Source of the DNA: a virus
Virus record (IMG/VR): IMGVR_UViG_3300022890_000014
Span: 1-64,000 of that record
Reading direction: 5' to 3' (one strand)
DNA: 64,000 bases
Each line of letters opens with the position of its first letter. Within the stretch, counting starts at the first letter, position 1. Positions 1,185 to 52,855 of this stretch are shown piece after piece. The translations under genes were made by a program, and so were the position numbers. The notes beneath the pieces were generated by a model, which searched no databases, had not been told where the DNA came from, and was given only the letters and a program-made list of their open reading frames with translations.

Positions 1185-1715
1185 ATGAGTATACTAATCG
1201 GAATCATAGTGCTATGCAATCTAGTACTACTCTTCGGCATTCTGCTGAGAGTTCAAGATGTTAGAGATGAGCTAATGGAAGTGAAGGGAGAGCAGCGTAA
1301 GTACTGGAACAGCTACCTTAACTCGAATCCGAATGCTCACGAAATAAGTTTGATACCAGAAGATTACGACCTGTCAGAAGATGATATAGCTGACGCACTA
1401 AGCGAGACTGAGCAGTCTGACATGCGTAAGGCTTACGCACAGGATGAGAGTATAGGGAACCACAACGGAAGTCTATACAAGGGACTTGTTGAAAGAGACA
1501 GCAGGCTGAAGAACGCTAGGTTGAACACTTTGACTGAAAGTACAAAACTCAATTCCTGTAAAGAGATTCACGAAGAATCACTGGATGAACAAATGAGAAG
1601 AAATGGTTTTTCCGAAGAAGACATAAAGAAGATGACTGTGCTAGAAAAAGAAGACGCTCTTTTTGTGACACCACATACCGACAAGCTGGAGGTTGAAGAT
1701 GAGAATAAGTCCTAA
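1185..1715 (+). CDS. Hypothetical protein with N-terminal membrane anchor
   Basis: Hydrophobic N-terminus; contains an in-frame palindrome (MRKAYA). Confidence 0.75.
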   Translation: MSILIGIIVLCNLVLLFGILLRVQDVRDELMEVKGEQRKYWNSYLNSNPNAHEISLIPEDYDLSEDDIADALSETEQSDMRKAYAQDESIGNHNGSLYKGLVERDSRLKNARLNTLTESTKLNSCKEIHEESLDEQMRRNGFSEEDIKKMTVLEKEDALFVTPHTDKLEVEDENKS

Positions 1716-2274
1716 GATACTGATAGAGAAGGGTATTCCTCTACAGCATGCGGATATATGGAGGCAAGCCTTTGGTAGTTACAACAGAGCGGTCAAAAAC
1801 ATCACAGTCAAAATGTGGGAGAAATTAATAAGAGAAGCGTCAAAAGTAGATAAGCAATCTTTTATGTGGATAAGATGCATTCTTCACTTAGGGACCGTCA
1901 ACCTTGATGGAATAGACTTGAGTGATTTAGACCTAGCAAACATGTGTCTTAGGGATACTAGTCTTCGGAATGCAAACTTCCGTGGCTCTAAGTTAGAGTG
2001 GATCAATCTTGGAGATGTTGACATTGAAGGCACCGGATGTGAATGGAAGCTTATAGGAAATTGGAGATGCGTTGCCACTCCTGATAACGTGTGGGTTGGT
2101 TGTGAGGAGGCAACTAACAAAGAGACTCAAGATATGACACAGAAGAAAGTTCAAAACATTAGTATTAGTGGAATAGCGAAATCAGAGATAAATAGATGGT
2201 GGCGCATGCACGGCGATGAACTAAAGTCTATGGCTAGAAGGTGTGAGAGACAAGGTTGGCCCAAAGGATTCTAG
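1699..2274 (+). CDS. Pentapeptide-repeat protein, paralog of the ORF at 2-343
   Basis: NLDGI-DLSDL-DLANM-CLRDT-SLRNA-NFRGS repeats followed by VATPDNVWVGC...RWW..H.DELK, as in the upstream paralog. Confidence 0.8.
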   Translation: MRISPKILIEKGIPLQHADIWRQAFGSYNRAVKNITVKMWEKLIREASKVDKQSFMWIRCILHLGTVNLDGIDLSDLDLANMCLRDTSLRNANFRGSKLEWINLGDVDIEGTGCEWKLIGNWRCVATPDNVWVGCEEATNKETQDMTQKKVQNISISGIAKSEINRWWRMHGDELKSMARRCERQGWPKGF

Positions 2275-2277
2275 TAA

Positions 2278-5200
2278 CTAGTAACTTCCATCTTCACCGA
2301 GTCCGAACTCGGCACCGTACATAAACCCTGGAATTGGGTTGCTACCATGTATGCTGCTCTTACCACTAGTGGCAGCAGACTCCATGATTGTTTTCTGGAT
2401 TCCCTCTTGGCCTAGAGCAGCTAACCAATCAGGCTTTACCTGTGGCAGTTGTTTCACGCCATAGAGTTCCGGCTTAATCTTCATGGGGTTTCTTTTTACC
2501 TTTATTTTTTTACCAGTGAGCTTGTCTAGATCTGACAGGCTTATCTTGTGTCCCTTGTCGAATCCATAAGCAGACTCTTCCATCTTGAATCCCACAGCAT
2601 CTTCGGCAGTCATATCAGCCACAGGATTTTTGTTTATATCGTTAGCTAATGACCAAGAAACAATGTCACCTATAGAGAACTCATCGTTTAGACCTGGATC
2701 TTCCACTACTGCTGTATTAGTAGCTCCACGCACAACGACCTCAAAGTTCTTTCTTTTTAGGCTGTTGTCCCCATAGGCGTCCTGAAGCGACTGAACTAGG
2801 AAGTTTTGGGTTGCTCTCATTCCTTGTGTCTCAAGAACATCATAGGGGTCTTTGTATCCAGTGGTAAGTGGATCTCCCTTAGTAACCTTACTTCCTTTTC
2901 TAACTATAGGCTTTTGGCCTACTGGTGTGGTGTACTTCTTTCCAGACACAACAAAGTCGAATCCACCACCAGGAGATTCTACTATCTCTTCAACAACACC
3001 AGTCTTAGCAGATAGCATTGTTTTACCAGGAAGATTCTTCGGCATTTGTGTTAGCTGTTGTATTCTCTTGAAAGAGTCAACTTCTCCGTGTCCAGTCTTA
3101 GATGGCATATCTGAAGTGTTCCAGTACACTCCTCCTGTATGAAATTTCTTCATAGCCTGCTGAGTGAGAGGCTCTCCAATTGACTGACTTGCTATAATGC
3201 CAATAGGAGATCCATTTCCATACGCCTTTCCTTCCTCGTTTGGACCGTAACACTTAGCACATATGCCTACAGCGTTTTTGCACGTCATAGGAGACCTGAC
3301 CCTCATAGTCTTTATCTTTTTCCTCTTTTTGTCTGCAACTATCTGTGGGTCAACGACTCTGTTAGTGCCAATTTCATACCTGTCAATAATCTGAGGATCT
3401 GAGACATCCATCTCAATGCCTTCTTTATCTCCACAATCTGCATTACTTATTGTCTGGTCGCCAACAGCATTAAGCATAAGCTTGTTTTGGTATCCAGGCT
3501 GGGCAGTAGACAGTGCTCTACCGATCATTCCTGCTCTTGCACCATATGAAGAGCCTATGTATTCAGAGACACTAAGTCCTTCAGAGTAACTATTTTCAAT
3601 TGGAATAGGGATAGGTGCGCCAGTATGATCTGATACTATAGTAGGACCACTTATCTGCTGCATAACAGCGCCCTTCTTACTTGTAGCTCCAGACTCAAGC
3701 CATTCATACAGGTTTGAATTCTCTTTACCAAACTTATCTATAACAGGTACAAGCTCTCTGTCAACTATTTTTAGCATCTCTTTTGACTTAGCATCTCTAG
3801 ACTTACTGTCATCACCAGAAATGTTCTTCAGTCTTTTCATGATAGCTTTTCTTTTTGGATCACTAACTGGTCGTATATCATCCATAGTCATAGTCTGATT
3901 GGATGAATATCTATCGCCTAGTTTTCTAAGAGCATCTATGATGACTGAGGCTTTAACCTTGTCTTTCTCAGCTATTGCCATTGCAAGCTTGTTGACTTCC
4001 TTCTTCTTCCAGATAGTGTTGTAGTTCCTGTTTTCTTTAGGAAGCAGGTCATTGATAAGAACTCTACCAGCAACAGTTCTTTTGCCGTTGAACATGACTG
4101 AATCTTTGTAGCTGATGTCTTTATTGTCTATGTCTTTTTTTACATCGTCTACGCTTGCGTAAGCCTTACGCAGATTCTTTCCACCACCTACAGATAGCTC
4201 ATAGATTCCAAGTTGAGCCATGTCTTGAGGAAGGTAGTTCATTATCTTTGCATCGCCTATACGAGCAGGCGTAAACAAGATATTGCTAGGCTTCATCCTG
4301 TTTGCTTCTGCTACTGCCTCTGGGGTGACAGGAACATGAATGTTCATCTGGTCCCCGTCAAAGTCAGCATTGAATCCTTTGACAATCATATTTGGTATTA
4401 GAATAGTCTTGCCTGGAGTTACTTTGGCATTAAATGCCTGAACAGAGTACTTATGTAACGACGGCGCTCTATTCAATATTACAGGTCTCTCATTCATTGC
4501 TTCCTGAAGAGCTTTGTCTACTATGTCATCCTTCTTAACATTAAGTCTCTTTAGAGAGTCTGCCATTGATAGTCCGTATGTCCCAGTCATCTTGCGAACC
4601 AAGAATGGTCTAAATATCTTCTTAGCCATCTCTTTTGGTATAGCTACCTCATCTATTCCAAGATTGGGGTCTGGAGCAATGACACCACGACCTGTTGGCT
4701 CCTGCTGCTTTCTCCACATGTTTCTCTGAATATAACCAGTCTTAGGGGAGTCTCCAGAGAGAGTGGATATAATACCTTTGGCTGGTCTTGTTAGTGCTGT
4801 AGATCCGCTAACACCGACTAGTGCTTCTAATCCCTGGTATAGACTGCCACGGAGATCCTTCTTCATCTCATCATCCATATCATCCATTTCTTTTAGCTGA
4901 TTAGATGTGAGTCCAAGGTCTCTGTAAAGATAGTTGAGAGGGGAAACTCCGAGGTCTCCACTTTGTAATCGATAAACTGGGCGCATCTGCGGAGGAAGCA
5001 CAGCGACATTCTTTGTCATGTATGCTTCTTCTGGTCTTCTGTCTGCTTTCTCTAGGCTGTTGATGTATCGAAGTGTACGGTTATTAGAGTTTCTTGTTGA
5101 ACCCTTCGATCCTTTTATCATTGATTCAGCTTCAATCTTTCTTTCAGCCAAGTCAACGTTTCTAAGAAGGTTAGTTATTCCAGGCCCACCAGTAGCAATA

Positions 5201-8200
5201 AGCGTGTTATCTGGCTCAGTTATCGTATTGATAATCCTTGTCTTGTCGTCAACACCAGGAGCCTTTGCGTAAGCCTTACGCGTGATACCAGTCATGTCTA
5301 GAAGCTGATCTTTCGAGTAAGATTCCAAATCTTCCATAACTGTGCCGTCAGCAGCAACATACTTCTTCCCAGTTACAACACTCTTGTATGTTGAGTCATT
5401 GATACCTGTTAGTTTCTTGATTGGATCTTTGAATAGTGGGTTGGGAAGTTCTTCTGGAAGAGCTATATGCGTCCATCTATCACCCTTGACCCCACCAGTC
5501 ATCTCTGGATCGAACAAACCGCCAACATGTTCTTTGAGACCCTTGCCTCTGAGCATTTTTGGATCAGTTATCTCTCCAGCACTCTGACTAAGAACATCTT
5601 TGTCTCTGATTGGCTCAGTAGAGATCATACTTCCGTTCTTGGTCATGTTGACACCAGCACCGCGAAGCATGGCATCAAACTTGTTCCATGTAAACGGAAC
5701 TTGAGGAGGAGGTGTTTGTTGACCTAGTTGTATTGCTCTCCAGAACTCATCAGATTGCTCTGCCTTATGAGTAGCCATCTCTCTAAGATTATGATTAGCA
5801 CCATGAGATAACATAGACCATGTTGACAGTGGATCGAGAGCTTTAGATCCAGTCTTGCCACCAGTTACAGGTTGTTTGTTTAGGTCATAGCCTTCACCTG
5901 GTTGTCTAGCAGAAAATCCAGATTCCCCAGTCTTAACAAGCTTCATCATGTATTGCTTGCCAGTTGTTATCTCACCCATAGACTTGCCAGTCTCAGGATC
6001 AAATAGCTCTTCGGTCTGCTTCAAGCCTGCATCTTTAAGGAGCTTCATGACGCCAGCATGGTTATCAGAAGGCTTAAAGTTTTCGACCATAATAGGCTTG
6101 CCGCCCTGCTTGTCTGCGACTTTGCCTGTTAAGGTCTCAAGTATCTGAGATGGATTCGTTCTTCCTATTACACCCATTGGGTTGAGGATAACTTCGACTG
6201 CTTCGCCGTTTTTGAACTGAGGCATCTTTGAATCAGGAACTATGGCAGAAATGACGCCTTTATTTCCGTGGCGACCTGAGTTTCCAGACCAGTGACATTT
6301 TCCATTTCTTCTTGTATATAGTATATGGTTTTTTTCTAGCCTAACGCAATAAATCTCATCTTCATAGTATACATACGATTCTTTTTGCCCACTCTGATTC
6401 TTTGAATGTCCATGATTTATTGTGGGGTTATTTTTGAATCTATATACGTATACGTTAAAGCAATCTTTCCATCCATTTTCATACACGGTCTTTTTTATAT
6501 TACTTGCCATGCCAATATGCAAGGTTAGTCTTTGAAAGTCGTCAGCTAATTGCTTAGATGTAGTGCAATATGAATGACCAGTAGATGTCTCAGATCCATC
6601 TCCCCACATCATCCATCTGTATAGAATTTTCAGATATTTTTTATCTAAAGAGAATATCCAGTTTGGTATAAATTTTTGATCGCATAGTCCGAACTGAGAG
6701 AAATACTCTTGAAGTTGGCGTCCGTAAAATATATACCTGGTGTCATTAGAGCATGGAGTCATGCCCCAGAAATCCAATTCTTCTTCAAATAGGATTCTTG
6801 TATGAGGTTTAACTTGGTGTATTACTATCCCGAAGTTTCCCCTTTTTTCATCTTTAAAACAATTTCCTTCTGCAAGATATGCTCCTAGAATGAACATGAA
6901 TTGCTCCATCTCCATATCTATACTTGGCAGTCTACGTGTTCCGTTTTCGCTCTGTCCTGCCCTAACAGTAATGTCTTCATCTATTGAGAAGTAGTCTATG
7001 TCTTCACCAACCCAATTAGAGGCGTTATTTTGAAGTCTATACCTCTTTCCCTTGAGTTGATATGCCTCAGTAAGAGAGTGGTTTTTCGCCCCTCTTCTTT
7101 TTGCAAATACACTATGATTCTCAGTAACAGACATCGACACTTGAGTTGTCTCAACTCTATACATATTTCCAGCATGAGGATAAGCATATGCCTTGTCTAC
7201 AGGTACATACTCAAGGGTGTCTGTTTCTGCATGAAGTGACGCAACTCTATCCTTGGTTGTTACATCAGCTACGTTTTTCCAGCCACCTATGGTTAGAATT
7301 TCATGCTCTTTGTCAAAACAAAGTTTGTCGCCTACCTCAAGTTGCTTAGTTACCTTGATTTGTACCTTGTATTGTCTTGTGTTCTCAACAACATCCATAA
7401 CCTCACCAGGAGATTCATACTCCCATTTTATAGATGCATCCTTCTGAGGCTTTACTAATCCTCTACCAAGCTTCTTCAGAATTCTATCTTCACTAGTATC
7501 TTCAGATAAACGCATGGCTGCGAAGATTGGATCTCCGTAATTGAGAATTTGTCCTTTCTTCACAACACCATTAGCACTAAGCTTTGCAGACTGAGCATTA
7601 GTAATAGAGCCAGGAAATGCTGCCCCATACTTATCTCTGTCATAAATAAAATCGTCACCCTTTGGTGATTTCTCTTCTATCATTTGCTGATGGGTCATCT
7701 TTTTCTGGTAGCCTTCGCTAACCTTGATCCCATCTTCCATTGTGCTACCATCACCAGCCATGTAAGCAACGCTAGTGTTGAGACCTAATGCAAGTACTCC
7801 ATTTTTGGTAAAGTTTAGATCTCCAATGAGACCATTCTTCTCAACCTTGTCTCCAACTTCAACATTAGGAGTGTGATGAAAGAACGACTTTTCATTGAGC
7901 TTGAAGTTATTGTACAGCGGTACTGTTTTGATTCCATCTTTACCGGATATATCAACAGAGTCTTTACCAACTCTTTTTACTATACCTTTTATTGGTGATG
8001 TAGCAGAGAAAGCTCTACCTACTGAACTCTCTACAGTTTCTCCGCTACCAAAGGATGACTGAACAAGTGGAACTTCTGGTTTTAGAACAGGAGTTGTTTG
8101 CTCTGTATGCTTTGATGCAAGAAACGCCCTTCCTCCTGACATAGAATCTAGGAAAGGTACTTGTGCTGTAGCAAACGTAAACACGGACTGCTCAGAAGGT

Positions 8201-9840
8201 ATGATAAAATCTACTTCCGATATTGGAACAATCTTGTCTACACCTTTATGCTGAACCTTTACTTTGCCTTTATGCTTTCCTTTTACTTCTACTTTCTTAC
8301 CACCACCATCTGGGGTGAAATATTGAGAGGTTGTGGCATCTCTAAAGATTATCTTTCCGTCTTCAACCTTGAACTGATCAGGATAAGCAATCTTTTTGTC
8401 GTGAGACTGCACGGCTGATAATTGAACTGGCTTCATGGTTTTATGATTGATGTAGACGCTAGTTAACTCGTTGCCTCTTTTCTCAGCACCGATAGTTAAA
8501 TAGTTTACAGCACCAATCTTTGCAGACTCAGGGGTCTTGATTGGGTCTAGTTTTCCAAGCTCACTAGGATGCAGAGACCTAGCTTCCGTCTTAACCATAT
8601 CTAGGCTACCAAGAGCACCTTCGCCCATGATAGTAGTCTTGTACTGCTCATTGATAAGCTGAATAGGATTGTGTTGCTCTGAACGTTCAGATATAGCAAG
8701 GGAGTTGAAGATACCCTCGGTTAGTTTCTTTATGTGGGGAACAGCTAGAATATCTCTAACCTTATCCTTGCTGTCAATTGCTCTCTTCATTCTAGAAGCA
8801 AGCATCTTCCTGTTGACTTGGAATCTTTCCTTGAAGATGTCCTCTGCTGAATGCACACTTTTAAACATTAGGTTGTCTCTATCGTCAACCTTTTCTCTAC
8901 CTTGTTGTGTTGCTATCAGTCGAGATGAAGCATCCATCAGAGCGCCACTCTCAAGCTTTGCGTAAGGCTTACGCAGTGTGAGCTTTGTCATCTCTGGGTC
9001 AAGAGAGGTGGTGTCGAAGTGCTCGTTCAGCCTTTCGACAGCCTCTTCTTTTGTAATATCAGCAGGAGTGTCGAGGAACTTGTTGCTGAACTTAACTACG
9101 CTCTGGGCTGTCTTTCTTCCGTGAAGAGCTTTGTTAGCATCAGCTACTTCTTTTCCCCAAGACTCAGATATTTCTTCATGACTATGACCCATGCCAATTA
9201 GAACTGGATACAGTGGTATGTTGCTACTTCCAACTTGGATAAGAACGTTTCCTTTCTTATCGTCCATGTGGACTTCCATCTTTCTCCCTCTACCGCCAGC
9301 ACCTAAGTTGATCTGGGTTTTCGGAAGTCCGTTGGCTTGGTTTACCGTGTACACACCTGGCTTGAGTCTAAACTGAGTAGGGAGGTTCCACTCTGAACCT
9401 TTGACAATAAAGGTCTGCCTAGTAGTAAGCTTAGGAAGATCCATAAGCTTGACTTTCTTAGTGGTGTTAATAGTCTTTCCAGTTTCTTTATCTATAAGAG
9501 AGACTTCTCCATAGACTGGAACACCATAGGTTTTATCTTCTAGCTTAGTCTTTTTTTGAAGAGAGTAGTCGTTAGCAGATTTGTTGTCGTCTACCCATAC
9601 CTTATGAAGCTTAAGGGTGTGCTTCTCTCCTTCGACTGGAAAGACAGATGATATTCCTTCTACTGCACTAACCTTAATCTTCTCGAACTGATCGCGGGTA
9701 TCAGTGACATTTCCGTCTTCGACATCTTCAGTGTTATTTTTCTTTGCTTGTTTCTCAAGATAGGACACAAGCGTTTCGTCTCCTCCCCAATCTAGGAATG
9801 AGTAAGACGGGCTTGGGTGCCCATTGCTATATATCGACAT
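2278..9840 (-). CDS. Single-chain DNA-directed RNA polymerase, fused beta and beta' subunits, containing an intein
   Basis: Beta motifs: QFRLKPG, DPIKTPE, GDKL..SGRHGNKG, ILNPMGVIGRTN. Beta' motifs: VLPPQMRP, GRGVIAPDP, ILNRAPSLH, catalytic NADFDGD (4351-4371), GIIASQSIGEPLTQ..MKKFHTGG. ATG at 9840 preferred over TTG 9861. Confidence 0.95.
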   Translation of the reverse strand: MSIYSNGHPSPSYSFLDWGGDETLVSYLEKQAKKNNTEDVEDGNVTDTRDQFEKIKVSAVEGISSVFPVEGEKHTLKLHKVWVDDNKSANDYSLQKKTKLEDKTYGVPVYGEVSLIDKETGKTINTTKKVKLMDLPKLTTRQTFIVKGSEWNLPTQFRLKPGVYTVNQANGLPKTQINLGAGGRGRKMEVHMDDKKGNVLIQVGSSNIPLYPVLIGMGHSHEEISESWGKEVADANKALHGRKTAQSVVKFSNKFLDTPADITKEEAVERLNEHFDTTSLDPEMTKLTLRKPYAKLESGALMDASSRLIATQQGREKVDDRDNLMFKSVHSAEDIFKERFQVNRKMLASRMKRAIDSKDKVRDILAVPHIKKLTEGIFNSLAISERSEQHNPIQLINEQYKTTIMGEGALGSLDMVKTEARSLHPSELGKLDPIKTPESAKIGAVNYLTIGAEKRGNELTSVYINHKTMKPVQLSAVQSHDKKIAYPDQFKVEDGKIIFRDATTSQYFTPDGGGKKVEVKGKHKGKVKVQHKGVDKIVPISEVDFIIPSEQSVFTFATAQVPFLDSMSGGRAFLASKHTEQTTPVLKPEVPLVQSSFGSGETVESSVGRAFSATSPIKGIVKRVGKDSVDISGKDGIKTVPLYNNFKLNEKSFFHHTPNVEVGDKVEKNGLIGDLNFTKNGVLALGLNTSVAYMAGDGSTMEDGIKVSEGYQKKMTHQQMIEEKSPKGDDFIYDRDKYGAAFPGSITNAQSAKLSANGVVKKGQILNYGDPIFAAMRLSEDTSEDRILKKLGRGLVKPQKDASIKWEYESPGEVMDVVENTRQYKVQIKVTKQLEVGDKLCFDKEHEILTIGGWKNVADVTTKDRVASLHAETDTLEYVPVDKAYAYPHAGNMYRVETTQVSMSVTENHSVFAKRRGAKNHSLTEAYQLKGKRYRLQNNASNWVGEDIDYFSIDEDITVRAGQSENGTRRLPSIDMEMEQFMFILGAYLAEGNCFKDEKRGNFGIVIHQVKPHTRILFEEELDFWGMTPCSNDTRYIFYGRQLQEYFSQFGLCDQKFIPNWIFSLDKKYLKILYRWMMWGDGSETSTGHSYCTTSKQLADDFQRLTLHIGMASNIKKTVYENGWKDCFNVYVYRFKNNPTINHGHSKNQSGQKESYVYYEDEIYCVRLEKNHILYTRRNGKCHWSGNSGRHGNKGVISAIVPDSKMPQFKNGEAVEVILNPMGVIGRTNPSQILETLTGKVADKQGGKPIMVENFKPSDNHAGVMKLLKDAGLKQTEELFDPETGKSMGEITTGKQYMMKLVKTGESGFSARQPGEGYDLNKQPVTGGKTGSKALDPLSTWSMLSHGANHNLREMATHKAEQSDEFWRAIQLGQQTPPPQVPFTWNKFDAMLRGAGVNMTKNGSMISTEPIRDKDVLSQSAGEITDPKMLRGKGLKEHVGGLFDPEMTGGVKGDRWTHIALPEELPNPLFKDPIKKLTGINDSTYKSVVTGKKYVAADGTVMEDLESYSKDQLLDMTGITRKAYAKAPGVDDKTRIINTITEPDNTLIATGGPGITNLLRNVDLAERKIEAESMIKGSKGSTRNSNNRTLRYINSLEKADRRPEEAYMTKNVAVLPPQMRPVYRLQSGDLGVSPLNYLYRDLGLTSNQLKEMDDMDDEMKKDLRGSLYQGLEALVGVSGSTALTRPAKGIISTLSGDSPKTGYIQRNMWRKQQEPTGRGVIAPDPNLGIDEVAIPKEMAKKIFRPFLVRKMTGTYGLSMADSLKRLNVKKDDIVDKALQEAMNERPVILNRAPSLHKYSVQAFNAKVTPGKTILIPNMIVKGFNADFDGDQMNIHVPVTPEAVAEANRMKPSNILFTPARIGDAKIMNYLPQDMAQLGIYELSVGGGKNLRKAYASVDDVKKDIDNKDISYKDSVMFNGKRTVAGRVLINDLLPKENRNYNTIWKKKEVNKLAMAIAEKDKVKASVIIDALRKLGDRYSSNQTMTMDDIRPVSDPKRKAIMKRLKNISGDDSKSRDAKSKEMLKIVDRELVPVIDKFGKENSNLYEWLESGATSKKGAVMQQISGPTIVSDHTGAPIPIPIENSYSEGLSVSEYIGSSYGARAGMIGRALSTAQPGYQNKLMLNAVGDQTISNADCGDKEGIEMDVSDPQIIDRYEIGTNRVVDPQIVADKKRKKIKTMRVRSPMTCKNAVGICAKCYGPNEEGKAYGNGSPIGIIASQSIGEPLTQQAMKKFHTGGVYWNTSDMPSKTGHGEVDSFKRIQQLTQMPKNLPGKTMLSAKTGVVEEIVESPGGGFDFVVSGKKYTTPVGQKPIVRKGSKVTKGDPLTTGYKDPYDVLETQGMRATQNFLVQSLQDAYGDNSLKRKNFEVVVRGATNTAVVEDPGLNDEFSIGDIVSWSLANDINKNPVADMTAEDAVGFKMEESAYGFDKGHKISLSDLDKLTGKKIKVKRNPMKIKPELYGVKQLPQVKPDWLAALGQEGIQKTIMESAATSGKSSIHGSNPIPGFMYGAEFGLGEDGSY
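6280..7320 (-). mobile_element. Intein (347 aa) with LAGLIDADG-type homing endonuclease in the RNAP beta GDK..GRHGNKG motif
   Basis: Starts CFDKEHEILT, ends HILYTRRNGKCHWSGN, +1 residue Ser. Block B VTENH. Endonuclease motifs ILGAYLAEG and YRWMMWGDG. Removal restores GDKLSGRHGNKG. Confidence 0.92.
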
Positions 9841-13336: not shown

Positions 13337-13357
13337 AATACATCCTTTGCGTAAGGC

Positions 13358-34000: not shown

Positions 34001-34069
34001 TTATTGTCTCCGTATTATTGCGTAAGCCTTACGCGAAAGTTCCATGTGCGTAAGGCTTACGCAATAGAT

Positions 34070-37000: not shown

Positions 37001-38392
37001 ATTAACTGCAAGTGACAGTACTGGCGACGCCTCTGGTATTGTTCTCCCAGAGCTAGGATCAGTTGTCCTGTATCCCAGTGCGCTAGATACACCTAGTCTA
37101 TATTTCAGTGCAACTTCGCCTATTGGCTTGTTTGGAGAAACAACTCCTTCTAAGCCGTCGAGAACTTCTTCCTTAGTAGTCCTTGAGGTGATGAATAACT
37201 TGTCTATTCTTTCACCAAGAACAGGATTATTCAGAGGAACTCTAAGTAACTCGAATGATGGAACTGTGTCAACTATTGTTGTTGAATTAGCACTAACGAG
37301 CAGTGGTTTTCTTTCTTCTCCACCATCAATTCTTTTTGGAGATTTAACTACTAGTTCTGGTGGATACTTAGCCATGTCTACAAAGTAGTCTAGGCCATTT
37401 GAATAACACCCACCTTTACCTATTGCAGAAGAAACATCGTCAACACTACCCCTGATAGACTCTGCCGTGAAAGATGATGCGCTCATCCATCCAGTGAGAT
37501 GCCTTCCGTAGCTCATATATTTTACTGCTAGCACTACAGCATTTCTTGCTGATACTTGACCAACAGATATTTTGATGTTTGTTGGGCTGTCTTCTCTGTC
37601 ATCTTGCGTTTCTGCATAAAGATACAGAGGAGGAGGGTTTGCGTATAAAACATCAACTGGGTAATCAATAGTCTGAGTTGTATTAACTGAAACCTTTATA
37701 CCGTTACAGCTAAAGTTTCCTGGTGATACCTCAACATTAGGAGGAGAATACTCTGCGTATTCAAGTTCTTCTTGACCAGCGGCTAATGTAACAAACTTTT
37801 TAGTGCTGTATATCTCAAGAACTGTTGCGCTTATTCCAGCATTAACTCTGTAGATTCCCCAGTTATCTCTTGCCTCTGGTATGCTATACAGAATGCTTGA
37901 TTGATTAACAAATGTGGCCGCAGCTATTGTAACAGACGATATATTTATATATGCCGTTATCTTGAAGGCGTTAGCATTAGCTCCTTTATATACAGTGATC
38001 CATTTACCTACATCTGTAGCCGCAAACGGACTATTTACTGTATCGGTGAATGTAGTAGGAGCAACAGCAAGAACGGAACCACCAAGAAAGTTTCTTCTTT
38101 TCTCTTGATCTATCCCGCTAAATATCAGTTGATTTCCACCAACAACAAACCAGTTATTTTTTATAGAGCTAGCTAGAAATCCAGGAGAAGATAAATCTTC
38201 AAACCTTATTGCTTCTCCGGCAGACAGTATTGGCTTTCCTCTTCCAGTTAAATTTACTACTGGTCCATTCTCAGTGATCTCAAGACCGTTAAGTATTCTT
38301 CCGGTGCTTACACCGAATACCTTCTTGAATGCAGTATTTATCTCAGACGAGATATACGGTGAATTCATTTTCAAGTGTTTTGTGATACCCAT
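34070..38392 (-). CDS. Large tail protein with C-terminal beta-helix-like region
   Basis: 1440 aa; GIQKAV..VVVGPGLY..LNFP pectin-lyase-like start; PF.A.DVG domain at the N-terminus. Confidence 0.6.
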   Translation of the reverse strand: MGITKHLKMNSPYISSEINTAFKKVFGVSTGRILNGLEITENGPVVNLTGRGKPILSAGEAIRFEDLSSPGFLASSIKNNWFVVGGNQLIFSGIDQEKRRNFLGGSVLAVAPTTFTDTVNSPFAATDVGKWITVYKGANANAFKITAYINISSVTIAAATFVNQSSILYSIPEARDNWGIYRVNAGISATVLEIYSTKKFVTLAAGQEELEYAEYSPPNVEVSPGNFSCNGIKVSVNTTQTIDYPVDVLYANPPPLYLYAETQDDREDSPTNIKISVGQVSARNAVVLAVKYMSYGRHLTGWMSASSFTAESIRGSVDDVSSAIGKGGCYSNGLDYFVDMAKYPPELVVKSPKRIDGGEERKPLLVSANSTTIVDTVPSFELLRVPLNNPVLGERIDKLFITSRTTKEEVLDGLEGVVSPNKPIGEVALKYRLGVSSALGYRTTDPSSGRTIPEASPVLSLAVNSGIDINSTVSNNLGVTVKAFADLNVIAPFSNAGIRFYANSSQYGQHGDYTSSIAPQNTGVKELVSATDIHGTFHFAWIETESGVNKVWYCRLDAFGNTQITAPVRISDTNSRDLSICVSLTQQVSLVFIDIATDLVRTVRFVGHAAGGVSSIIAEANLDATPSQRCSIQCTYETERYFYFRTPLGGGAMDVTCKASDSTTLVNPTVYGESNIGVLSNVSMTSKIVSVRTEDDEILAFTAAKVYTADDNWYSVFGVKVSDIAAINEGWIAATEGKVTDVLDLTDVIALQDGRVIVLGTNGTSVFANMLSKSLQSMSNSRFALGVADSYTAISGTHVYPSGEVIIQATAFNGGAYDTVFSNLEISLEGNMPETPNGISPDVFSGSKEFLLAEIKVLSGAIPDYPGLGLHIATDATPAGPSVLSSVSASAIGMRDGSRIATTVATAAGMSVGMMSTKPNVSAIMLLDDVESDGFDDTIDPLSVMTVYSSLDNSNWILRAVRDVYRVNGNTIIKMVSSTTDEYIKVYFSAQLLIPYEASDGSDSFAMSIGEVRLFETSPGDTSSATSENSVSVPGLVEISQKNLPDSKDIYVGDGYQSFGEYSGFEGIQKAVSRSLSMSLNSYDKNVFPESNRKVVVGPGLYIVSSSLNFPGGTNIEFMPGAILVDERTSDSGLSYLCYSTGVYGTFNVYEKTRQVYLSENCQMKGIKVGSSVRVVGPTTRTETFVSRISKGGRILHLADIIPESSAATDITVYNAGVRIDGMKARVLKNHINVAAISLMSFNQLSELVLNNVEVTDRTPISVNTYTVLEAYMCKKVRLDDIDIGSIGADAAIHINICESVSGGSVRCSCLNTGFKMNDVSDFRGFSSLVSRGNPSVPGGDMTISSVTGDNPFGRFSINPSSTRAGLLLSGVSVGFDEFINMDVHREGLISLLNNGIYEQLLAMVTSEVQAINSSPLINLPSGWVDGFVNSSIIDALESH

Positions 38393-40736: not shown

Positions 40737-43700
40737 CTAGAAAGTTATTGTTTCTAGCAATACCCTAAGCGAATCGTACACTTTTACCTCACCTGATTCA
40801 TATATGCTAATTGCTTCTTCATCTAGACTATACTCTGGTCTGAGCTTTGAGTAAAGAATTCCTTTTCCTGCTGTGATAGTGCTAGAAATTCCAATCGAAC
40901 TTGTAGACACGAAGGATGTGATTTCATACACACCTTGGCTATCTTCGTGGCTTATTTCAAATTCCAATCCAACAGCTAACAATCCTATGGAATCTTCTAC
41001 TTCAACCTCATGAGTGCCTATATATGCTGTTATCTTTGTGTTAATATTCAACTGAGGTATATTTAACTGCTTGCCTACGTCTGTTGCAGAGAATGGACCG
41101 TATGCAGTTGCAGCATAGAACGAGTTAGGGCTGACTGTAGATACCGAACCACCCTTATAAAATCTCCACGCACCGCCAACCCATATGTATGAGCCTACAT
41201 CACCAGCAGTAAATGGTGAGTTCTCTGTGTCATCCAATGTTAATACAGCAGATGTCTCCCCGTCTTTAGATGAGGGATAGGAATGGTTTGATACAACACT
41301 AGTGAAAGGATCGGCTGAAGATGGGAGTAGTGATGCCCACCATGAGATCGTACTAGTCAAATCCATTATAAAACTAGATACATAGCCGCCTTCATCAGTG
41401 ATGCTAAACTCATCTTCTTGGTCAACTATTATCTGCAATATGAAATCAGTATACTCAGGGCTAACATCTCTCAGGAATTGAGATATTTGGTTTATGTCAG
41501 GAAGATTATTAAATGCTTCTGATGATATTTGACACAAAAACAAGTGCCTTCTTAGAAGAGACTTAGCAAGCTCTCTGTTTGTAGCAGTTGTGTTTTCTGT
41601 GTAGTATTTAGCAAGTGCGGTCTCGCTCATGTTGTCTCTGATGAAATCTGGCTGACTTGTCATGTCAAACAATCTGACAGCAGAAACTATAGCTACATAA
41701 CTGATACTCGATTCATCATTCAAGTCTCCATTTAGAACTACATGAAAGTCCTTCTCAAACTGAGTGATGCTATATGTGCCAGCATTTACACCAACGGGTA
41801 TGTGTATTTTTCCACCAACTGCATTCTTGTCGAAAGGAGCACTATCTCTATCGAAGAACGATCTTCCTATTGTCGAACCAGAAGATGTATATTCAGACCT
41901 GAATCCAGATAGTATTCCAAACTTTTCGACTTTCTCACCAATAGATACATATGGATCTAGTCCATTTGGTAGCTGGTACTGCTCTATGTTTCCATCTGCA
42001 TCTGTAACAGCTACTACCCATCTGCTCCCTAGCTCTATTCTTCTTAAAGAAACTGAGGTGACAGTGCCCTCTGTAAAGGCAAACGGAAGACCCATGAGTA
42101 TATTGACGCCTCTTTCGATAAGGCTTGGCTTCGGTCCTGTCCAGTATGTGATCCACAGTGATAGCAGCGATAGGTAATAGACGGATGAATTCTCTTGATA
42201 GAAGTTTATAAGGCTACCAAACTGCTTGTATGGATCTTCTTTATTTATATATACTTCTGGTGCCCATAGATTGACTCTTGGGTTCTCTCTGAAGTATATA
42301 TATCCATCCTCTTCTAAAAAGAAACCTATGCCTTCTTCTAGGTAAGTTGGCTTGTATGTCATCTCTGCAATAAACTTACCACCAGCAGCTATCTTTGCTG
42401 ATGGAGGTATTACCGCAACTCCACTATCCATATCAACCGTATAATCAGTACCTTGCGTAAGGCTTACGCCTGAGTCAGTTACTAGTTCTAAAGTCAGCAA
42501 AGACTTGTGACCCAAGAATAGTTCATCGTAGTTAGTCAGTGATACGTAGTCGTAAGCTTCATCTGTTGCTTGCTCAACTGTCTCTTGTAGTACTGGTAAT
42601 TCTACTGTCTCAACACCGACCTTTACTCTGTATAGAACTTTGACAGCATACGATATTGTCATCTGTGAACAATCAGCTATCATTCCGAATGGAATTCTCT
42701 TACACATACCAGTAGTAAGATCGACAACTAGATCAGATGGCATAAGCCAAGTAAGAGATGTGTTTGATGTCGTAAGAGTTTTATTGAGTCTTACAGAATT
42801 GCTAGATACGAACTCAGTTATTGTGTACTGACCAGAATCAGTACCACTGGATACAAATATCTTTCTTCCAACGTCTTCTGCTACGAACGGAGTCTCAACA
42901 CTAACTTCTTCAAACAGATTGCTTGCAGCTACAGTCTTTCCGTTAAACCAATCACTGTAGTCGCCCTGAACAAATTCATACTCTAGGCCAACTGCATCAG
43001 TGAACGAAGCAGAATATAGATCAAGATAGTCTCCATCTGCGCTAACGCTTCTCACTCTGTATTTTGCTCCACCGACGTCAACATTTGTCCCAAGGTTAGA
43101 CCTAGTGAACTTACGTATCGATGAATACAATCTTGTCGGGAATGCTAACTTTGTTATTCCATCAGCAACACCACTGTTAACTGCTCTTACTCTTCCTCCT
43201 AATGGAAGTGCATCTACCTTCACAGACTCAATGTTTATAGCGCCTAAGTCAACTATCTTTTCACTATCAAGTATCACAGCCTTGGATCTTCTGGCATAAT
43301 CTTTGAATTTATACTTAGAAGATAGGTCGCTGTTAAGTTCTCCACCTATTGAATAAGTGAGACCTTTTGCAGAACCTAGGCTGGCTAAGTCAAGCTCAAC
43401 TGACTTAATACTATTTACCGCTGCTATGTTATAGAATCTTCCATCTATAGTCAGGTTTGAGTCAACATCTGTATTACTAGATCCATACCCATCTGTTACA
43501 GAATCAAGGAAAGGTCTTCTAGTGTTATCAACCATACTAGTAGGATCAGAAGAAGATACTTCACCAGTAGCTATATACTTTCTGTATCCAGATGTGACAG
43601 TAGCCCATGTTTCTTTTCTATATATGAGAGAGTCGAATACGTTCTGGTACGCATCTAGTTCATACAGTCTTTGCATCAGATTGCCTGCTGTATGAACATT

Positions 43701-44357
43701 ACCCATCCATGCTCTCTCTATCTGCTCTTTATCTTCCGAGCCAACAATATCCCAGACATCACGTATTCCTTTCCAGAAATCTCTAACATCCATAAGGGCT
43801 GTGGGTCTCTCTGGAGCTACGATAGGGATTGTAATAAGTGAGATAGAGTCGGGTGTGGTCTCTCCAGTGGAGAATTTCTTGTTGAACCAGAAGTCATCGC
43901 CTGGATTTATGACTATCGATGTGTCAAGAAGGTATCTATAGGTTGATGTTGTTTTATCTACACCTATTATCTTCGACTTGGTGGTTGTAGATATGAATAC
44001 ATAGTCACCTATTATTGATTCAGAAACCAGGCTATTACACCCTGGCTCAAGGTAAACATCTGGACCAACTACGAAAGTGGAGCCATTGCCTAGCACATGC
44101 ATTGACTGATAAATTGGGTTTGAGTTTACTATCTTTGTTCCGTCACCATCTGACAAAACCATATACCCAGTCATTTTTGCTGATGGATACGGAGAGATGG
44201 CTTTTATTCTTGCATCTAGAAGCTGAACAGAATTCTCAACAAAACTTATATCTCCAGAGAACTCAACATGCGTACTGCCCAGTGGTATATCAAATATGTC
44301 AAACAGAGCTTTCCGTATTTTTATCTCTGACGCATCTTTCTCTATTCGTAATTCCAT
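40737..44357 (-). CDS. Baseplate wedge-like protein with repeated PF-x3-[D/A]VG domains
   Basis: Follows the J-like gene; C-terminal QFLRDVSPEYT wedge-type motif. Confidence 0.6.
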   Translation of the reverse strand: MELRIEKDASEIKIRKALFDIFDIPLGSTHVEFSGDISFVENSVQLLDARIKAISPYPSAKMTGYMVLSDGDGTKIVNSNPIYQSMHVLGNGSTFVVGPDVYLEPGCNSLVSESIIGDYVFISTTTKSKIIGVDKTTSTYRYLLDTSIVINPGDDFWFNKKFSTGETTPDSISLITIPIVAPERPTALMDVRDFWKGIRDVWDIVGSEDKEQIERAWMGNVHTAGNLMQRLYELDAYQNVFDSLIYRKETWATVTSGYRKYIATGEVSSSDPTSMVDNTRRPFLDSVTDGYGSSNTDVDSNLTIDGRFYNIAAVNSIKSVELDLASLGSAKGLTYSIGGELNSDLSSKYKFKDYARRSKAVILDSEKIVDLGAINIESVKVDALPLGGRVRAVNSGVADGITKLAFPTRLYSSIRKFTRSNLGTNVDVGGAKYRVRSVSADGDYLDLYSASFTDAVGLEYEFVQGDYSDWFNGKTVAASNLFEEVSVETPFVAEDVGRKIFVSSGTDSGQYTITEFVSSNSVRLNKTLTTSNTSLTWLMPSDLVVDLTTGMCKRIPFGMIADCSQMTISYAVKVLYRVKVGVETVELPVLQETVEQATDEAYDYVSLTNYDELFLGHKSLLTLELVTDSGVSLTQGTDYTVDMDSGVAVIPPSAKIAAGGKFIAEMTYKPTYLEEGIGFFLEEDGYIYFRENPRVNLWAPEVYINKEDPYKQFGSLINFYQENSSVYYLSLLSLWITYWTGPKPSLIERGVNILMGLPFAFTEGTVTSVSLRRIELGSRWVVAVTDADGNIEQYQLPNGLDPYVSIGEKVEKFGILSGFRSEYTSSGSTIGRSFFDRDSAPFDKNAVGGKIHIPVGVNAGTYSITQFEKDFHVVLNGDLNDESSISYVAIVSAVRLFDMTSQPDFIRDNMSETALAKYYTENTTATNRELAKSLLRRHLFLCQISSEAFNNLPDINQISQFLRDVSPEYTDFILQIIVDQEDEFSITDEGGYVSSFIMDLTSTISWWASLLPSSADPFTSVVSNHSYPSSKDGETSAVLTLDDTENSPFTAGDVGSYIWVGGAWRFYKGGSVSTVSPNSFYAATAYGPFSATDVGKQLNIPQLNINTKITAYIGTHEVEVEDSIGLLAVGLEFEISHEDSQGVYEITSFVSTSSIGISSTITAGKGILYSKLRPEYSLDEEAISIYESGEVKVYDSLRVLLETITF

Positions 44358-48786: not shown

Positions 48787-49671
48787 TTAGTATATCTTCA
48801 TTCTATTTGCGCATCTTATGTTTAGTATGGATTTATGATTTGGATTAACACCTGGCCTTGGGTGTCTCTCATCTTCTTCAGGGGGAACACCGAGCATTTC
48901 GTTGTAAAACATAGATTCATTATGTAAAGAAGGAAGTTTACCAGATGCATGCGCATCTATTGATAACTTGTAGTGAGGTTTTGGATACGGATCTATATAA
49001 GAAATATCCTCCCATGCTTTCCAGCACAAAAGGTCTTTATCATTATCAGCACCTTTTATAAACAGAGACTCCTCTCTTTTGCCAAGTCTCCACCAATCAT
49101 TAATAAAGAATTCTTTTACAGGATCTTTCTTTCTTAATGATTTAGCCAACATTTCTTTTACTTCGTCGCCAGTGTATCCCCAAGGAACACCTATGCCGAA
49201 CTTGTTGCCTATTGATATAGTGTCTATAAGTGGCGAGCCTTTCCATGCCTGCATGCCCATAGACTTAGTTTCAGTTGAAGTTTTAAATCTAAGAACCTGA
49301 ACCATTAACTCTCTGTGGGATTCATTTAGTTTTTCACTACTAACTAGACCGAGACTATGCATTGACACCATGCTTGCGTAGTTAAGTGTGGTAGTGGTTA
49401 AGTTTTGCATCCTTGCAATGTCTGCATCTGAATGATTAGTCTTGCAAATCTTATCTAGCCACACACTACTGGAGTTGCGCTCACCACCCTCGAAATATTC
49501 AAACTCGCTTCCGTTAATCATTTCTTTTTTCTTAGAATTTTCCACTTTGCTACCTATGAAGTTAGACATAGTTTCTTGTTCTCTAACTACCTGGCTTTCA
49601 TATTTCTCTCGGTTTTCAGGATTAAAGAAGTATGTTGTGCTTGCGTAAGGCTTACGCATTCCATCAGACAT
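48787..49671 (-). CDS. Hypothetical protein
   Basis: AGGAG SD; in-frame palindrome near the N-terminus (MRKPYA). Confidence 0.7.
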   Translation of the reverse strand: MSDGMRKPYASTTYFFNPENREKYESQVVREQETMSNFIGSKVENSKKKEMINGSEFEYFEGGERNSSSVWLDKICKTNHSDADIARMQNLTTTTLNYASMVSMHSLGLVSSEKLNESHRELMVQVLRFKTSTETKSMGMQAWKGSPLIDTISIGNKFGIGVPWGYTGDEVKEMLAKSLRKKDPVKEFFINDWWRLGKREESLFIKGADNDKDLLCWKAWEDISYIDPYPKPHYKLSIDAHASGKLPSLHNESMFYNEMLGVPPEEDERHPRPGVNPNHKSILNIRCANRMKIY

Positions 49672-49768: not shown

Positions 49769-49854
49769 TGGTAAGGGCAGGATTTGAACCTGCATCTCCA
49801 TGCACTGGGACTTTGCAAGTACCGTATGGCGCATAACCATTATGCTACCCTTCC
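49769..49854 (-). tRNA. Non-canonical tRNA-like RNA, GCA (Cys) loop on an elongated anticodon arm
   Basis: GGAAGGG-TA-GCAT/AATGGTT/ATGC-G-[32-nt arm with TTGCAAA loop]-AGAT-GCAGG/TTCAAAT/CCTGC-CCTTACC-A; no encoded CCA. Confidence 0.7.
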
Positions 49855-49937: not shown

Positions 49938-50085
49938 TGAGATTTATTCAATACGTCCTCGACAACTGCTTTGTTTGTCGGTACTAGTATCTATTGCCAG
50001 TAAAAAAACTTAGCAAGATGTAAGCAAACATCCCACATCATAGATTCTTTATTGGCATGGCAGAATCTCACAACTGCCGCATATT

Positions 50086-50725: not shown

Positions 50726-50772
50726 ATATACACTATAACACATCATCTATATATCTTGTACCCTTTTTTTTA

Positions 50773-51333: not shown

Positions 51334-51391
51334 AAGAATCCTCTCTGCGTAAGGCTTACGCATGGCTTGTTTCAGGTGAGTAATTCACAGT

Positions 51392-51426
51392 ATAGTAACA
51401 CGTATATGGGTATAAAATTAATAGAG
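51392..51426. promoter_or_regulatory. Divergent promoter pair
   Basis: CGTGTTACTAT (-, 51392-51402) and GGTATAAA-ATTAA-TAGAG (+, 51409-51426). Confidence 0.55.
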
Positions 51427-51491
51427 GAAGAACTAGTCCATCTCCTCTACTAATTATTCTGGACTAAACAATAACAAGTCATATATCAGAG

Positions 51492-51785
51492 GTGAATATT
51501 ATGGGCGACAAGTCAAACAAACCGATTAGAAGCACAAGACATGTTTGTAAAGTAAATATACACGGTGCTGAGATACACACGATGGTCGGAATGACTGGAA
51601 AGAAATCAGTTCTTTTGGTGGATAAAGAATATAGTGGGGGTGTTATCGAATTCGCAATAACATGGCTGAGAGATCGGAAGAGACGCGGTAAGCCAATAAT
51701 CGGATTGTGTATAGAGTGTCTGCAAGGTTCGTCATGTGGAAGAGTGACAGTGGAAGACAACGGAGACCTAACCGTGAAGTTCTAG
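51492..51785 (+). CDS. Small hypothetical protein, stand-alone transcription unit
   Basis: GAGGTG SD (likely start ATG 51501), own promoter motif and terminator. Confidence 0.65.
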   Translation: MNIMGDKSNKPIRSTRHVCKVNIHGAEIHTMVGMTGKKSVLLVDKEYSGGVIEFAITWLRDRKRRGKPIIGLCIECLQGSSCGRVTVEDNGDLTVKF

Positions 51786-51794
51786 GTTGTCGGG

Positions 51795-51816
51795 AGTCGC
51801 AACATGCGACTTTTTT
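51795..51816 (+). terminator. Intrinsic terminator
   Basis: AGTCGCA-ACA-TGCGACT followed by TTTTT. Confidence 0.7.
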
Positions 51817-52855
51817 AGTACATAACTTTTCCTGCATCCAGTATGTCTTTTATCTCTGATGCAATAAACCTGTGCTCTTTTCTCACCTCTGCTTCACTTA
51901 TGCCTAGTCTATTAGATATTTCCTTCACTCCATCGAGAGTTTCTTTTCCCTCGAAGTCATCAAAAGTATGTTCCATAACTAGTTGCTGCTTCGGTGTTGC
52001 ACTGTGATACGTAGTAAAAAGAGCTTCAACTGCTGGGTCTGTGTTGCTTGCACCTATCGGACCTAGGTTGTCATCAAGCACCAAGTCTTGTCTTAGCTCC
52101 TGATCTATGGCTTTTAGGTCAGATATTTTCCATCCAAGTTCTTGACGCAGTTCTTGAATTGTGGGGTCTCGATTCTTTTTATCTTTTAGTAGTTCGTATG
52201 CGTTCTGATATACGCCTACTTTAGCTGCCCTTGGTTCAGGTATACTTCCCACGTTCTGATATTTATACCCATACCTGTGAATCTTAGACAGTTGATGCCA
52301 AACATGAGTGTTAAGTGCCGCACCCTTGTTTGGGTTATATGTGTTTATTCCGTGCCTAAGCAGTCTCATTCCTTCTGCTTCTACAGCAGATTTTGGGAGA
52401 GGAGAGTTCTTGACCCAAGGACGAACCCTGCTTCGTACAAGAGGAGTGAAGGAATGCATAAGCTTCCTAAGTGCTCTCTTGTCACCAGTCTTGTTGTACG
52501 ACTTCCAGAGTTCCATCTCTTCATCTTTAGACATACTTGCAGCAGTTTTAATTAGGGAAGGATAGATGCTGTCTTCAATAATGCACTTACCGTTAGCTTC
52601 CTTAGTAAACTCGCATAAAGCCCAATCCTTAGAGGAGTCACCAAGAAACCGTGTGTTCTCATCACACACAACTCTTCCACCATCGAATAGCTCCGAGGCA
52701 AGTTTCATTGTGTGCGTAAGGCTTACGCGGTCACTGCTCCACACCACAAGAGCGCCCTTGCTTGTATCTTCAGGTAGATACATTGCAGACTTCTCTATGC
52801 CGTCCTCTTCTGTCACAAGAAGACCAGCAGTGTGTTTATTCATATATGTATTCAT
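51815..52855 (-). CDS. Sigma-70-family RNA polymerase sigma factor (SigB/FliA-like core) with N-terminal extension
   Basis: EEMELW..GDKRALRKL..FTPLV (region 1.2/2.1), EGMRLLRHGINTYNPNKGAALNTHV (2.2-2.4), RDPTIQELRQELG (3), EISNRLGISEAEVR (4.2). Confidence 0.88.
   Translation of the reverse strand: MNTYMNKHTAGLLVTEEDGIEKSAMYLPEDTSKGALVVWSSDRVSLTHTMKLASELFDGGRVVCDENTRFLGDSSKDWALCEFTKEANGKCIIEDSIYPSLIKTAASMSKDEEMELWKSYNKTGDKRALRKLMHSFTPLVRSRVRPWVKNSPLPKSAVEAEGMRLLRHGINTYNPNKGAALNTHVWHQLSKIHRYGYKYQNVGSIPEPRAAKVGVYQNAYELLKDKKNRDPTIQELRQELGWKISDLKAIDQELRQDLVLDDNLGPIGASNTDPAVEALFTTYHSATPKQQLVMEHTFDDFEGKETLDGVKEISNRLGISEAEVRKEHRFIASEIKDILDAGKVMY

Follow-up and report, generated by a model that had tools for sequence, protein, structure and literature searches.

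Several kinds of short DNA sites, repeated many times along a genome, have been described. The closest to the one analyzed here are the 17-bp dyad repeats of Cluster O mycobacteriophages (Corndog and relatives; Cresawn et al. 2015, PMC4351075), in which a site with invariant inverted arms is present more than 30 times throughout the phage genome, without orientation relative to transcription, mostly between genes, but with a share inside coding regions. These repeats are predicted to bind a dimeric protein, the phages encode ParB-like domain proteins, and the function is still unknown. Stoperators of Cluster A mycobacteriophages, mentioned in the same paper, are also tens of identical repressor-type sites spread through a phage genome, often next to stop codons, but appear to be asymmetric and oriented with transcription. 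Among ParB-family proteins, including the ParB-parS and Noc-NBS systems, KorB of the IncP plasmid RK2 is a CTP-dependent clamp, which loads at its OB operators and slides to act up to about 1.5 kb away (McLean et al. 2025, PMC11790492). Within coding regions, the DNA uptake sequences (USS/DUS) of Pasteurellaceae and Neisseriaceae accumulate by point mutation, enrich the peptides they encode, prefer tolerant positions and impose a cost (Findlay and Redfield 2009, PMC2817400). Rickettsia palindromic elements are likewise tolerated in frame inside unrelated proteins, and are probably best regarded as insertions of 100-150 bp that add residues.

The site described here, found in a large uncultured phage (IMG/VR record IMGVR_UViG_3300022890_000014), shares with the Cluster O repeats a 17-bp dyad with invariant arms, tens of copies throughout the genome and no orientation relative to transcription. 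The sequences are unrelated, and the Cluster O site is built 7-3-7. Cluster O copies are described as denser toward one genome end, not evenly spaced, and no maximum-gap rule, no gap-filling role of in-gene copies and no covariation between relatives has been reported there. The phage itself is not related to Cluster O: it has a fused beta-beta' RNA polymerase, and its nearest cultured relatives by that gene are Vibrio phages at 30% identity. Stoperator-like asymmetry is not found, the site being a perfect dyad with no orientation bias. Uptake sequences differ in being asymmetric, 9-12 bp long, present in hundreds to thousands of copies in bacterial chromosomes, and located mostly in genes, whereas here genes are avoided unless spacing demands otherwise.

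The palindrome and its copies inside genes

The window analyzed corresponds to positions 1 to 64,000 of the phage record. It contains 35 exact copies of GCGTAAG[G/C]CTTACGC, plus one with one mismatch, against 0 in 100 shuffles. The entire 150.7-kb record, which is 82% complete, contains 73 exact copies, or 85 with up to 2 mismatches. The site extends to a 17-bp form, (T)GCGTAAG-S-CTTACGC(A), in 66 and 59 of the 73 copies for the two flanks, and the copies share nothing beyond 17 bp. The central G or C is the same base pair seen from either strand, so all 15 positions are fixed.

The original prediction, that eight copies lie in frame inside proteins, three of them in the RNA polymerase, was confirmed; its coordinates are one base to the left of the 15-bp cores, corresponding to the 17-bp form T...A. 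Genes were called independently, and all eight copies fall within ORFs, where they read RKAYA, RKPYA or VSLT. The third reading frame of the palindrome holds TAA on both strands, so only these two readings are possible. The features concerned are listed below.

1424-1438: in-gene copy, reading M-RKAYA-Q in the 176-aa ORF 1185-1715 (+).
2278-9840 (-): fused beta-beta' RNA polymerase gene, identified by Pfam (2520 aa from the best start; the longest ORF runs to 9861), hosting three copies.
4157-4171: in-gene copy in the beta' part of the RNA polymerase, reading L-RKAYA-S at ORF aa 1898.
5267-5281: in-gene copy in the RNA polymerase beta/beta' linker, reading T-RKAYA-K at aa 1528.
6280-7320 (-): LAGLIDADG intein of 347 aa (1041 bp) inside the RNA polymerase, carrying no palindrome.
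8960-8974: in-gene copy in the beta part of the RNA polymerase, reading L-RKPYA-K at aa 297.
36637-36651: in-gene copy, reading C-VSLT-Q at aa 581 of the 1440-aa protein 34070-38392 (-).
42455-42469: in-gene copy, reading G-VSLT-Q at aa 630 of the 1206-aa protein 40737-44357 (-), within its Ig-like domain match.
49643-49657: in-gene copy, reading M-RKPYA-S at codons 5-10 of the 294-aa protein 48787-49671 (-), whose start codon has a good AGGAG ribosome-binding site.
51815-52855 (-): sigma factor gene with a folded N-terminal domain (aa 1-74), which carries the palindrome.
52714-52728: in-gene copy, reading R-VSLT-H at codons 43-48 of the sigma factor.
418-62420: the lattice to which the eight copies belong, with 27 further exact copies plus one with one mismatch (48700); seven of them supply the TAA stop codon of the upstream gene (13349, 16893, 19605, 26109, 46220, 60590, 62406), and the rest lie between genes.

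The 'tail' and 'baseplate' labels of the original prediction are weakly supported: the 1206-aa protein has only an Ig-like tail-domain match (E 6e-5), and the 1440-aa protein has no family match and no homologue.

Spacing of the copies along the chromosome

Copies avoid coding sequence: 17 of 85 lie in genes, against 89% coding DNA (P=1e-48), a 4.4-fold avoidance. They are also more evenly spaced than expected, with a gap CV of 0.58 (0.45 with near-exact copies) against 0.99 for random placement, and only 2 gaps under 500 bp, against 15.5 expected. In order to evaluate the contribution of the in-gene copies, these were compared with random coding positions. In-gene copies lie far from junction copies (median 1,855 bp against 804 bp, P=0.003) and lower the gap CV from 0.79 to 0.58 (P=5e-5). 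All 8 junction-to-junction intervals of 3,653 bp or more hold an in-gene copy, while four intervals of 3,054-3,633 bp do not. The largest gap is 3,693 bp, and 17 random coding positions never bring it down to this value (0 of 50,000).

Within the window, the copy at 36637 splits a 4,356-bp interval, the copy at 42455 splits a 3,653-bp interval almost in half, and the copy at 52714 splits a 4,442-bp interval, in which the genes abut and leave no room between them. The largest gap (5267-8960) is lengthened by the intein. The claim that most in-gene copies fall where gaps would exceed 3.5 kb holds for 6 of 8; those at 1424 and 49643 are not needed to close a gap.

Taken together, these data support selection in place on site spacing, one of the two alternatives in the original prediction, and we assign to this reading a probability of about 0.72. 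The phage prefers to place the site at gene junctions, often using its TAA as the stop codon, but has to keep neighbouring sites no more than about 3.65-3.7 kb apart; where genes are too long or abut too tightly, the site is made inside the gene, in one of the two stop-free frames (RK[A/P]YA or V[S/R]LT). A non-coding DNA signal can therefore outrank protein sequence in essential phage enzymes, and the spacing rule points to a process with a fixed reach along DNA.

Protein alignments at the in-gene sites

The second alternative, active insertion of the motif, was tested by aligning the host proteins with their orthologues. At RNA polymerase aa 297 the column is ungapped across the whole family (ancestral L-G-K-x-F/Y). 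The aa 1898 site lies in a module absent from about half of distant orthologues and aligns without gaps to bacterial G-R-V-F-T. Columns are also ungapped at the DNA polymerase III alpha (DnaE) site, outside the eight, where a Ser replaces a Leu found in 47 of 69 orthologues, and at the third site of P0005, a related protein in which the conserved Y-D-A-Y-G has become H-K-A-Y-A. The aa 1528 site falls in a lineage-specific insertion of about 40 aa, a linker that relatives share without the palindrome at that spot; relatives have HKAYA or HEAHA in the same column, or RKAYA 15 columns upstream. Orthologues without the site can already match 10-12 of 15 bases at the aa 297 column, which puts it in the top 1-5% of positions, although the DnaE site was not pre-adapted relative to its bacterial orthologues. 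Sites arise by point substitution of existing codons, and tend to do so where the old sequence already resembled the motif or where the protein tolerates change.

A tiny mobile or self-converting element, surviving only in the two stop-free frames, is accordingly considered unlikely. The identity of all 73 copies could come from homogenisation, and some turnover is evident, since the related protein P0002 has a copy inside its own extra intein, and the linker copy sits at different positions in different relatives. However, no 5-6-aa insertion is seen at any alignable site, in contrast with elements of the Rickettsia type, the avoidance of genes and the sharp maximum gap would not be produced by an inserting element, and no other IMG/VR or GTDB contig carries more than one copy. 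Short-patch conversion cannot be excluded.

Relatives about 50% identical keep the same protein positions, with peptides that follow the grammar of the palindrome, whereas distant orthologues do not carry the peptides (0 in 113 RNA polymerases). RNA polymerase column 338 reads RKPYA in 4 phages, HKAYA in one and HEPHA in one, K to E and Y to H being the two sides of one palindrome pair. The sigma column, kept by five related sigma factors, reads VSLT in four phages, VRLT in one (centre flipped) and ISLM in one, V to I and T to M being the two sides of another pair; ISLM was predicted before that search. That these peptides are encoded by palindromes is inferred from protein sequences alone, and V to I, T to M and S to R are also common conservative protein changes. 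On this reading, a site, once made, is held in place while the surrounding protein diverges, and when the palindrome drifts in a related phage both arms change together, and the encoded peptide with them. Signatures such as RK[A/P]YA, HKAYA and HE[A/P]HA make the lattice and its co-evolving variants detectable from protein databases alone.

Conservation at the same columns might also suggest that the peptides themselves are selected, for example as a shared cleavage or targeting motif. This is very improbable, because the same DNA gives two unrelated peptides depending on frame, 80% of copies are not translated at all or serve as stop codons, and the centre flip changes Ser to Arg and Ala to Pro freely. 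The expectation that the sites map to surface loops is only half right: in the model, RNA polymerase aa 297 is in a loop between two helices, but the sigma site begins a helix in a folded domain.

Reading of the site as DNA or as RNA

The site is inferred to be read as duplex DNA by a symmetric dimer. Across the 47 copies flanked by co-directional genes, the centre reads C on the coding strand in 27 and G in 20, showing no tie to gene strand. The best candidate reader, inferred and not shown, is the phage's own ParB/KorB-like protein (genome 81986-83620, 544 aa), encoded directly downstream of a copy. It aligns to Spo0J 1vz0 residues 69-160, with G-H-R-R-F-T-A opposite G-E-R-R-Y-R-A (E=1.8e-6), and matches the PHROG ParB-like family phrog_6218 (E=5.6e-11), only in the N-terminal/HTH region, while no Pfam match was found at E<=0.01. 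A protein that loads at the sites and slides a limited distance, as KorB does, would give a physical reason for a maximum spacing of about twice that reach.

An extended form of this hypothesis can only be put forward tentatively. The lattice would be a loading-site array for a ParB-type CTP clamp, envisaged as partner-less although ParA and KorA homologues were not looked for, whose sliding range of about 1.8 kb each way sets a hard upper limit on spacing, so that the whole viral chromosome is coated, whether for self-marking, protection, compaction or global transcription control. Site and reader would co-evolve, each related phage having its own private palindrome at the same protein positions.

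Reading by something other than the ParB-like protein, such as a nicking or modification enzyme, priming or replication, or a self-marker protecting phage DNA from a nuclease, is less likely, although a maximum-spacing rule fits any process acting over a limited distance. A 15-17-bp perfect dyad is longer than usual restriction, modification or primase sites, and is typical of dimeric operator or parS-type binding.

A role in RNA, as a hairpin between cistrons used for processing, termination or translational control, with the in-gene copies as by-products, was also considered, since most copies lie between a stop codon and the next ribosome-binding site, and the motif can form a 7-bp stem with a 3-base loop. 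This appears unlikely. A pure hairpin would tolerate compensatory variation among copies, yet all 73 are identical, and the spacing rule ignores gene structure. A processing or termination signal in the middle of the RNA polymerase, DnaE and sigma genes would be harmful. The predicted hairpins are weak (about -7 kcal/mol, z -1.5 to -2.9, with values down to -9.6 kcal/mol) and have no conserved U tract, and the only Rfam match in the window is a tRNA.

Number and location of the palindrome copies

The motif is the 15-bp perfect palindrome GCGTAAG[G/C]CTTACGC, which is usually extended to 17 bp, being preceded by a T in 66 of 73 copies and followed by an A in 59 of 73. The window contains 35 exact copies plus one with one mismatch, while none was found in 100 shuffles. 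The window represents the first 64 kb of a 150,744-bp IMG/VR phage record, 82% complete and 41.5% G+C, in which 73 exact copies were identified. By allowing one or two mismatches, 12 more copies were added, for a total of 85, against about 0.15 expected. Nothing beyond the 17 bp is shared between copies. The central G or C is the same base pair read from either strand, so that on duplex DNA all 15 positions are invariant.

Genes were called by using a codon-usage model trained on the long ORFs, which produced 157 genes and 89-90% coding DNA. Of the 73 exact copies, 41 lie between genes, typically a few bases after a stop codon and 10-20 bases before the next start, next to its ribosome-binding site. 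Another 17 overlap a stop codon, and the remaining 15 lie well inside genes. In the 17 copies overlapping a stop, the GCG-TAA of the first arm supplies the last Ala codon and the stop of the upstream gene, so that these proteins all end in Ala; in the window they are those at 13349, 16893, 19605, 26109, 46220, 60590 and 62406. Since TAA sits in one frame on both strands, an in-gene copy can only read x-R-K-[A/P]-Y-A or x-V-[S/R]-L-T-x. The central base shows no tie to gene direction: across the 47 copies flanked by co-directional genes, it reads C on the coding strand in 27 and G in 20.

The original prediction listed eight copies within genes of the window, three of them in the RNA polymerase, and a 1041-bp intein; all eight copies, the three polymerase copies and the intein were confirmed. 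The main features are the following.

window 2278-9840 (-): single-chain beta-beta' RNA polymerase gene, about 2,170 aa without its intein
window 6280-7320: 1041-bp intein within the RNA polymerase gene
window 34020-34034 and 34048-34062: two palindrome copies 28 bp apart, between the 1159-aa and 1440-aa genes
window 49769-49854 (-): tRNA gene (Rfam RF00005, 47 bits), just upstream of the 294-aa gene that carries a palindrome at its N-terminus
window 51815-52855 (-): sigma factor gene, with an in-gene copy
genome 71524-79494: stretch of 7,970 bp without exact copies
genome 120156-123620 (-): gene for a 1154-aa protein with LAGLIDADG and intein-splicing domains and a weak head-maturation-protease match, the second intein-bearing gene to carry an in-gene palindrome (V-RKPYA-E at aa 667)
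genome 147143-150565: DNA polymerase III alpha (DnaE) gene, with an in-gene palindrome at its midpoint

Scans for the palindrome, and for the two variant palindromes predicted from the peptides of relatives (see below), found only single, chance-level hits in IMG/VR, and one IMG/VR contig having the same length as that of the relative P0007 turned out to be unrelated. The 17-mer gave 68 single hits in GTDB genomes, against about 69 expected by chance, and a megablast search of phage records found nothing. Vibrio phage D181, at 30% RNA polymerase identity, has no palindrome lattice in 48 kb, so the lattice is not a trait of the whole fused-polymerase family.

Spacing of the copies

Gaps between exact copies average 2,062 bp, with a CV of 0.58, whereas random placement gives 0.99 (P<5e-5). 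Only 2 gaps are under 500 bp, against 15.5 expected; the two copies lying 28 bp apart are the only close pair in the genome, every other gap being 471 bp or more. When near-exact copies are included, the CV is 0.45 and the largest gap is 3,693 bp. The only stretch without exact copies, at genome 71524-79494, is bridged by four copies with one or two mismatches (73554, 74555, 75890 and 78008), as if this region tolerates or is accumulating degenerate sites.

Genes are strongly avoided, as 17 of 85 copies lie within them, against 89% coding DNA (P=1e-48). In order to evaluate whether the in-gene copies serve the spacing, they were compared with random coding positions. Their median distance to the nearest junction copy is 1,855 bp, against 804 bp for random coding positions (P=0.003), and adding them lowers the CV from 0.79 to 0.58, a value matched by random coding positions in 1 of 20,000 trials. 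Seventeen random coding positions never brought the largest gap down to 3,693 bp in 50,000 trials. The rule is sharp: all eight junction-to-junction intervals of 3,653 bp or more (3,653 to 9,393 bp) hold at least one in-gene copy, whereas four intervals of 3,054 to 3,633 bp hold none. Single internal copies lie at 31-74% of their interval. In the window, 6 of the 8 in-gene copies are needed by this rule, while those at 1424 and 49643 are not. The copy in the sigma factor sits in a 4,442-bp interval, where genes abut and leave no room between them.

In-gene copies compared with orthologous proteins

The RNA polymerase belongs to a large family of fused phage polymerases, seen almost only in metagenomes, and its many homologues are all fused beta-beta' proteins from uncultured phages, six of them close, at 50-58% identity. 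Inteins come and go between close relatives, whose lengths range from 2,157 to 3,056 aa. At aa 297 the alignment is ungapped through the whole family, and distant members read L-G-K-x-[F/Y]-x where the query reads L-R-K-P-Y-A. At aa 1898, in a module absent from about half of the distant orthologues, the query reads L-R-K-A-Y-A where others read x-[NGR]-K-x-F-x and a bacterial beta' reads G-R-V-F-T, again without gaps. The aa 1528 site lies in a linker of about 40 aa specific to this clade, so it is not a 5-6-aa insertion either. In P0005, a related RNA polymerase, the family-wide Y-D-A-Y-G is turned into H-K-A-Y-A in place. No homologue was found for the 1440-aa protein.

In DnaE, which lies outside the window, S-V-R-L-T-R aligns without gaps to Thermus I-V-K-E-S-K and to 69 bacterial-type orthologues, and Ser replaces a Leu found in 47 of 69 of them. 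DnaE has no close phage relative in the searched collection, and could not be used to test the predicted peptides in relatives. Its best matches are bacterial-type DnaE at 43-52% identity, and those carrying a name are mostly Desulfobacterota, Nitrospirota or Deferribacterota, which suggests capture from a bacterium.

Orthologues lacking the palindrome could already match 10-12 of the 15 bases at the aa 297 column, which puts it in the top 1-5% of positions in their own proteins, and 9-12 at the aa 1898 column. This pre-adaptation is not seen for DnaE. The copies are therefore substitutions of aligned residues. Of the two alternatives in the original prediction, which took insertions of 5-6 aa to imply mobility and substitutions of aligned residues to imply selection in place, the latter is supported and active insertion is not, although short-patch conversion cannot be excluded.

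Conservation in relatives could be followed at the protein level only. Simply counting "palindrome-capable" 5-mers was not useful, because 95 of 120 proteins have chance pairs; only triple recurrences and alignment to the query's sites were informative. At RNA polymerase column 338, four phages read RKPYA, one reads HKAYA and one reads HEPHA. At the linker column, the query reads RKAYA, P0005 reads HKAYA and P0006, another relative, reads HEAHA, while three other phages carry RKAYA 15 columns upstream. Each relative repeats its own peptide 2-4 times, and one of the copies of the relative P0002 is inside an extra intein that only it has. None of these peptides occurs in 113 more distant RNA polymerases. 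Two distant fused RNA polymerases show a different recurrence, Y-V-R-R-[K/N], found three times in P0113 and twice in P0010; it can be back-translated to the dyad TACGTC-N-GACGTA, a hint that another clade of this phage family has its own in-gene palindrome lattice.

Back-translation gives CATAAG-S-CTTATG for HKAYA and CATGAG-S-CTCATG for HE[A/P]HA; in the latter, K to E and Y to H are the two partners of one palindrome pair. From this it was predicted, before the search was performed, that the other reading frame would give I-[S/R]-L-M or M-[S/R]-L-M in relatives. The sigma search returned five close orthologues, and a cluster look-up added one more. At the R-VSLT-H column of the query they read G-VSLT-H, C-VSLT-H, G-VRLT-H (centre flipped), G-VSLT-L and P-ISLM-G, the last being the predicted variant, with V to I and T to M as the two partners of a pair. 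This is what conservation of a DNA dyad predicts, whereas conservation of a peptide does not predict it, although V to I, T to M and S to R are also common conservative protein changes.

The original prediction expected the sites to map onto surface loops. An AlphaFold model of RNA polymerase aa 101-460 (mean pLDDT 84), matching bacterial beta with TM 0.75, puts R-K-P-Y-A in a short, confident loop between two helices. A model of the sigma factor shows a folded N-terminal alpha/beta domain (aa 1-74, pLDDT above 90 over most of it), in which R-V-S-L-T-H forms the first turns of a helix. The expectation thus holds for one site and not for the other, although solvent exposure could not be computed. 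The N-terminal domain, joined by a disordered linker (aa 75-106), is shared only with the closest relatives, while other homologues start at the sigma core.

Candidate reader of the site and comparable systems

The perfect dyad, the orientation-free centre, the identity of all copies and a spacing rule that ignores gene structure all point to a symmetric dimer reading duplex DNA. A role in RNA is unlikely, as the hairpin is weak, has no U tract and matches no Rfam family, and copies in the middle of essential genes would be harmful as processing or termination signals. The inferred reader is a 544-aa protein encoded just downstream of the copy at 81949. It matches Spo0J/ParB over the arginine-motif and helix-turn-helix region (E=1.8e-6) and a PHROG ParB-like family (E=5.6e-11), whereas Pfam gives no match. 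KorB of plasmid RK2, a ParB-family CTP clamp, loads at its palindromic operator and slides to act up to 1.5 kb away (PMC11790492). A reach of that order would explain a maximum spacing near 3.7 kb, but both the reader and this mechanism are inferred.

No description of an evenly spaced phage palindrome lattice was found in the literature searched. The nearest published case is the 17-bp dyad repeat of Cluster O mycobacteriophages, of unknown function, which has 34 copies with invariant arms, no orientation, and about a third of copies in coding regions (PMC4351075); even spacing, gap filling and covariation are not reported there. Uptake sequences in competent bacteria are the best-studied case of a DNA signal co-evolving with proteins (PMC2817400); they are asymmetric and mostly lie in genes.
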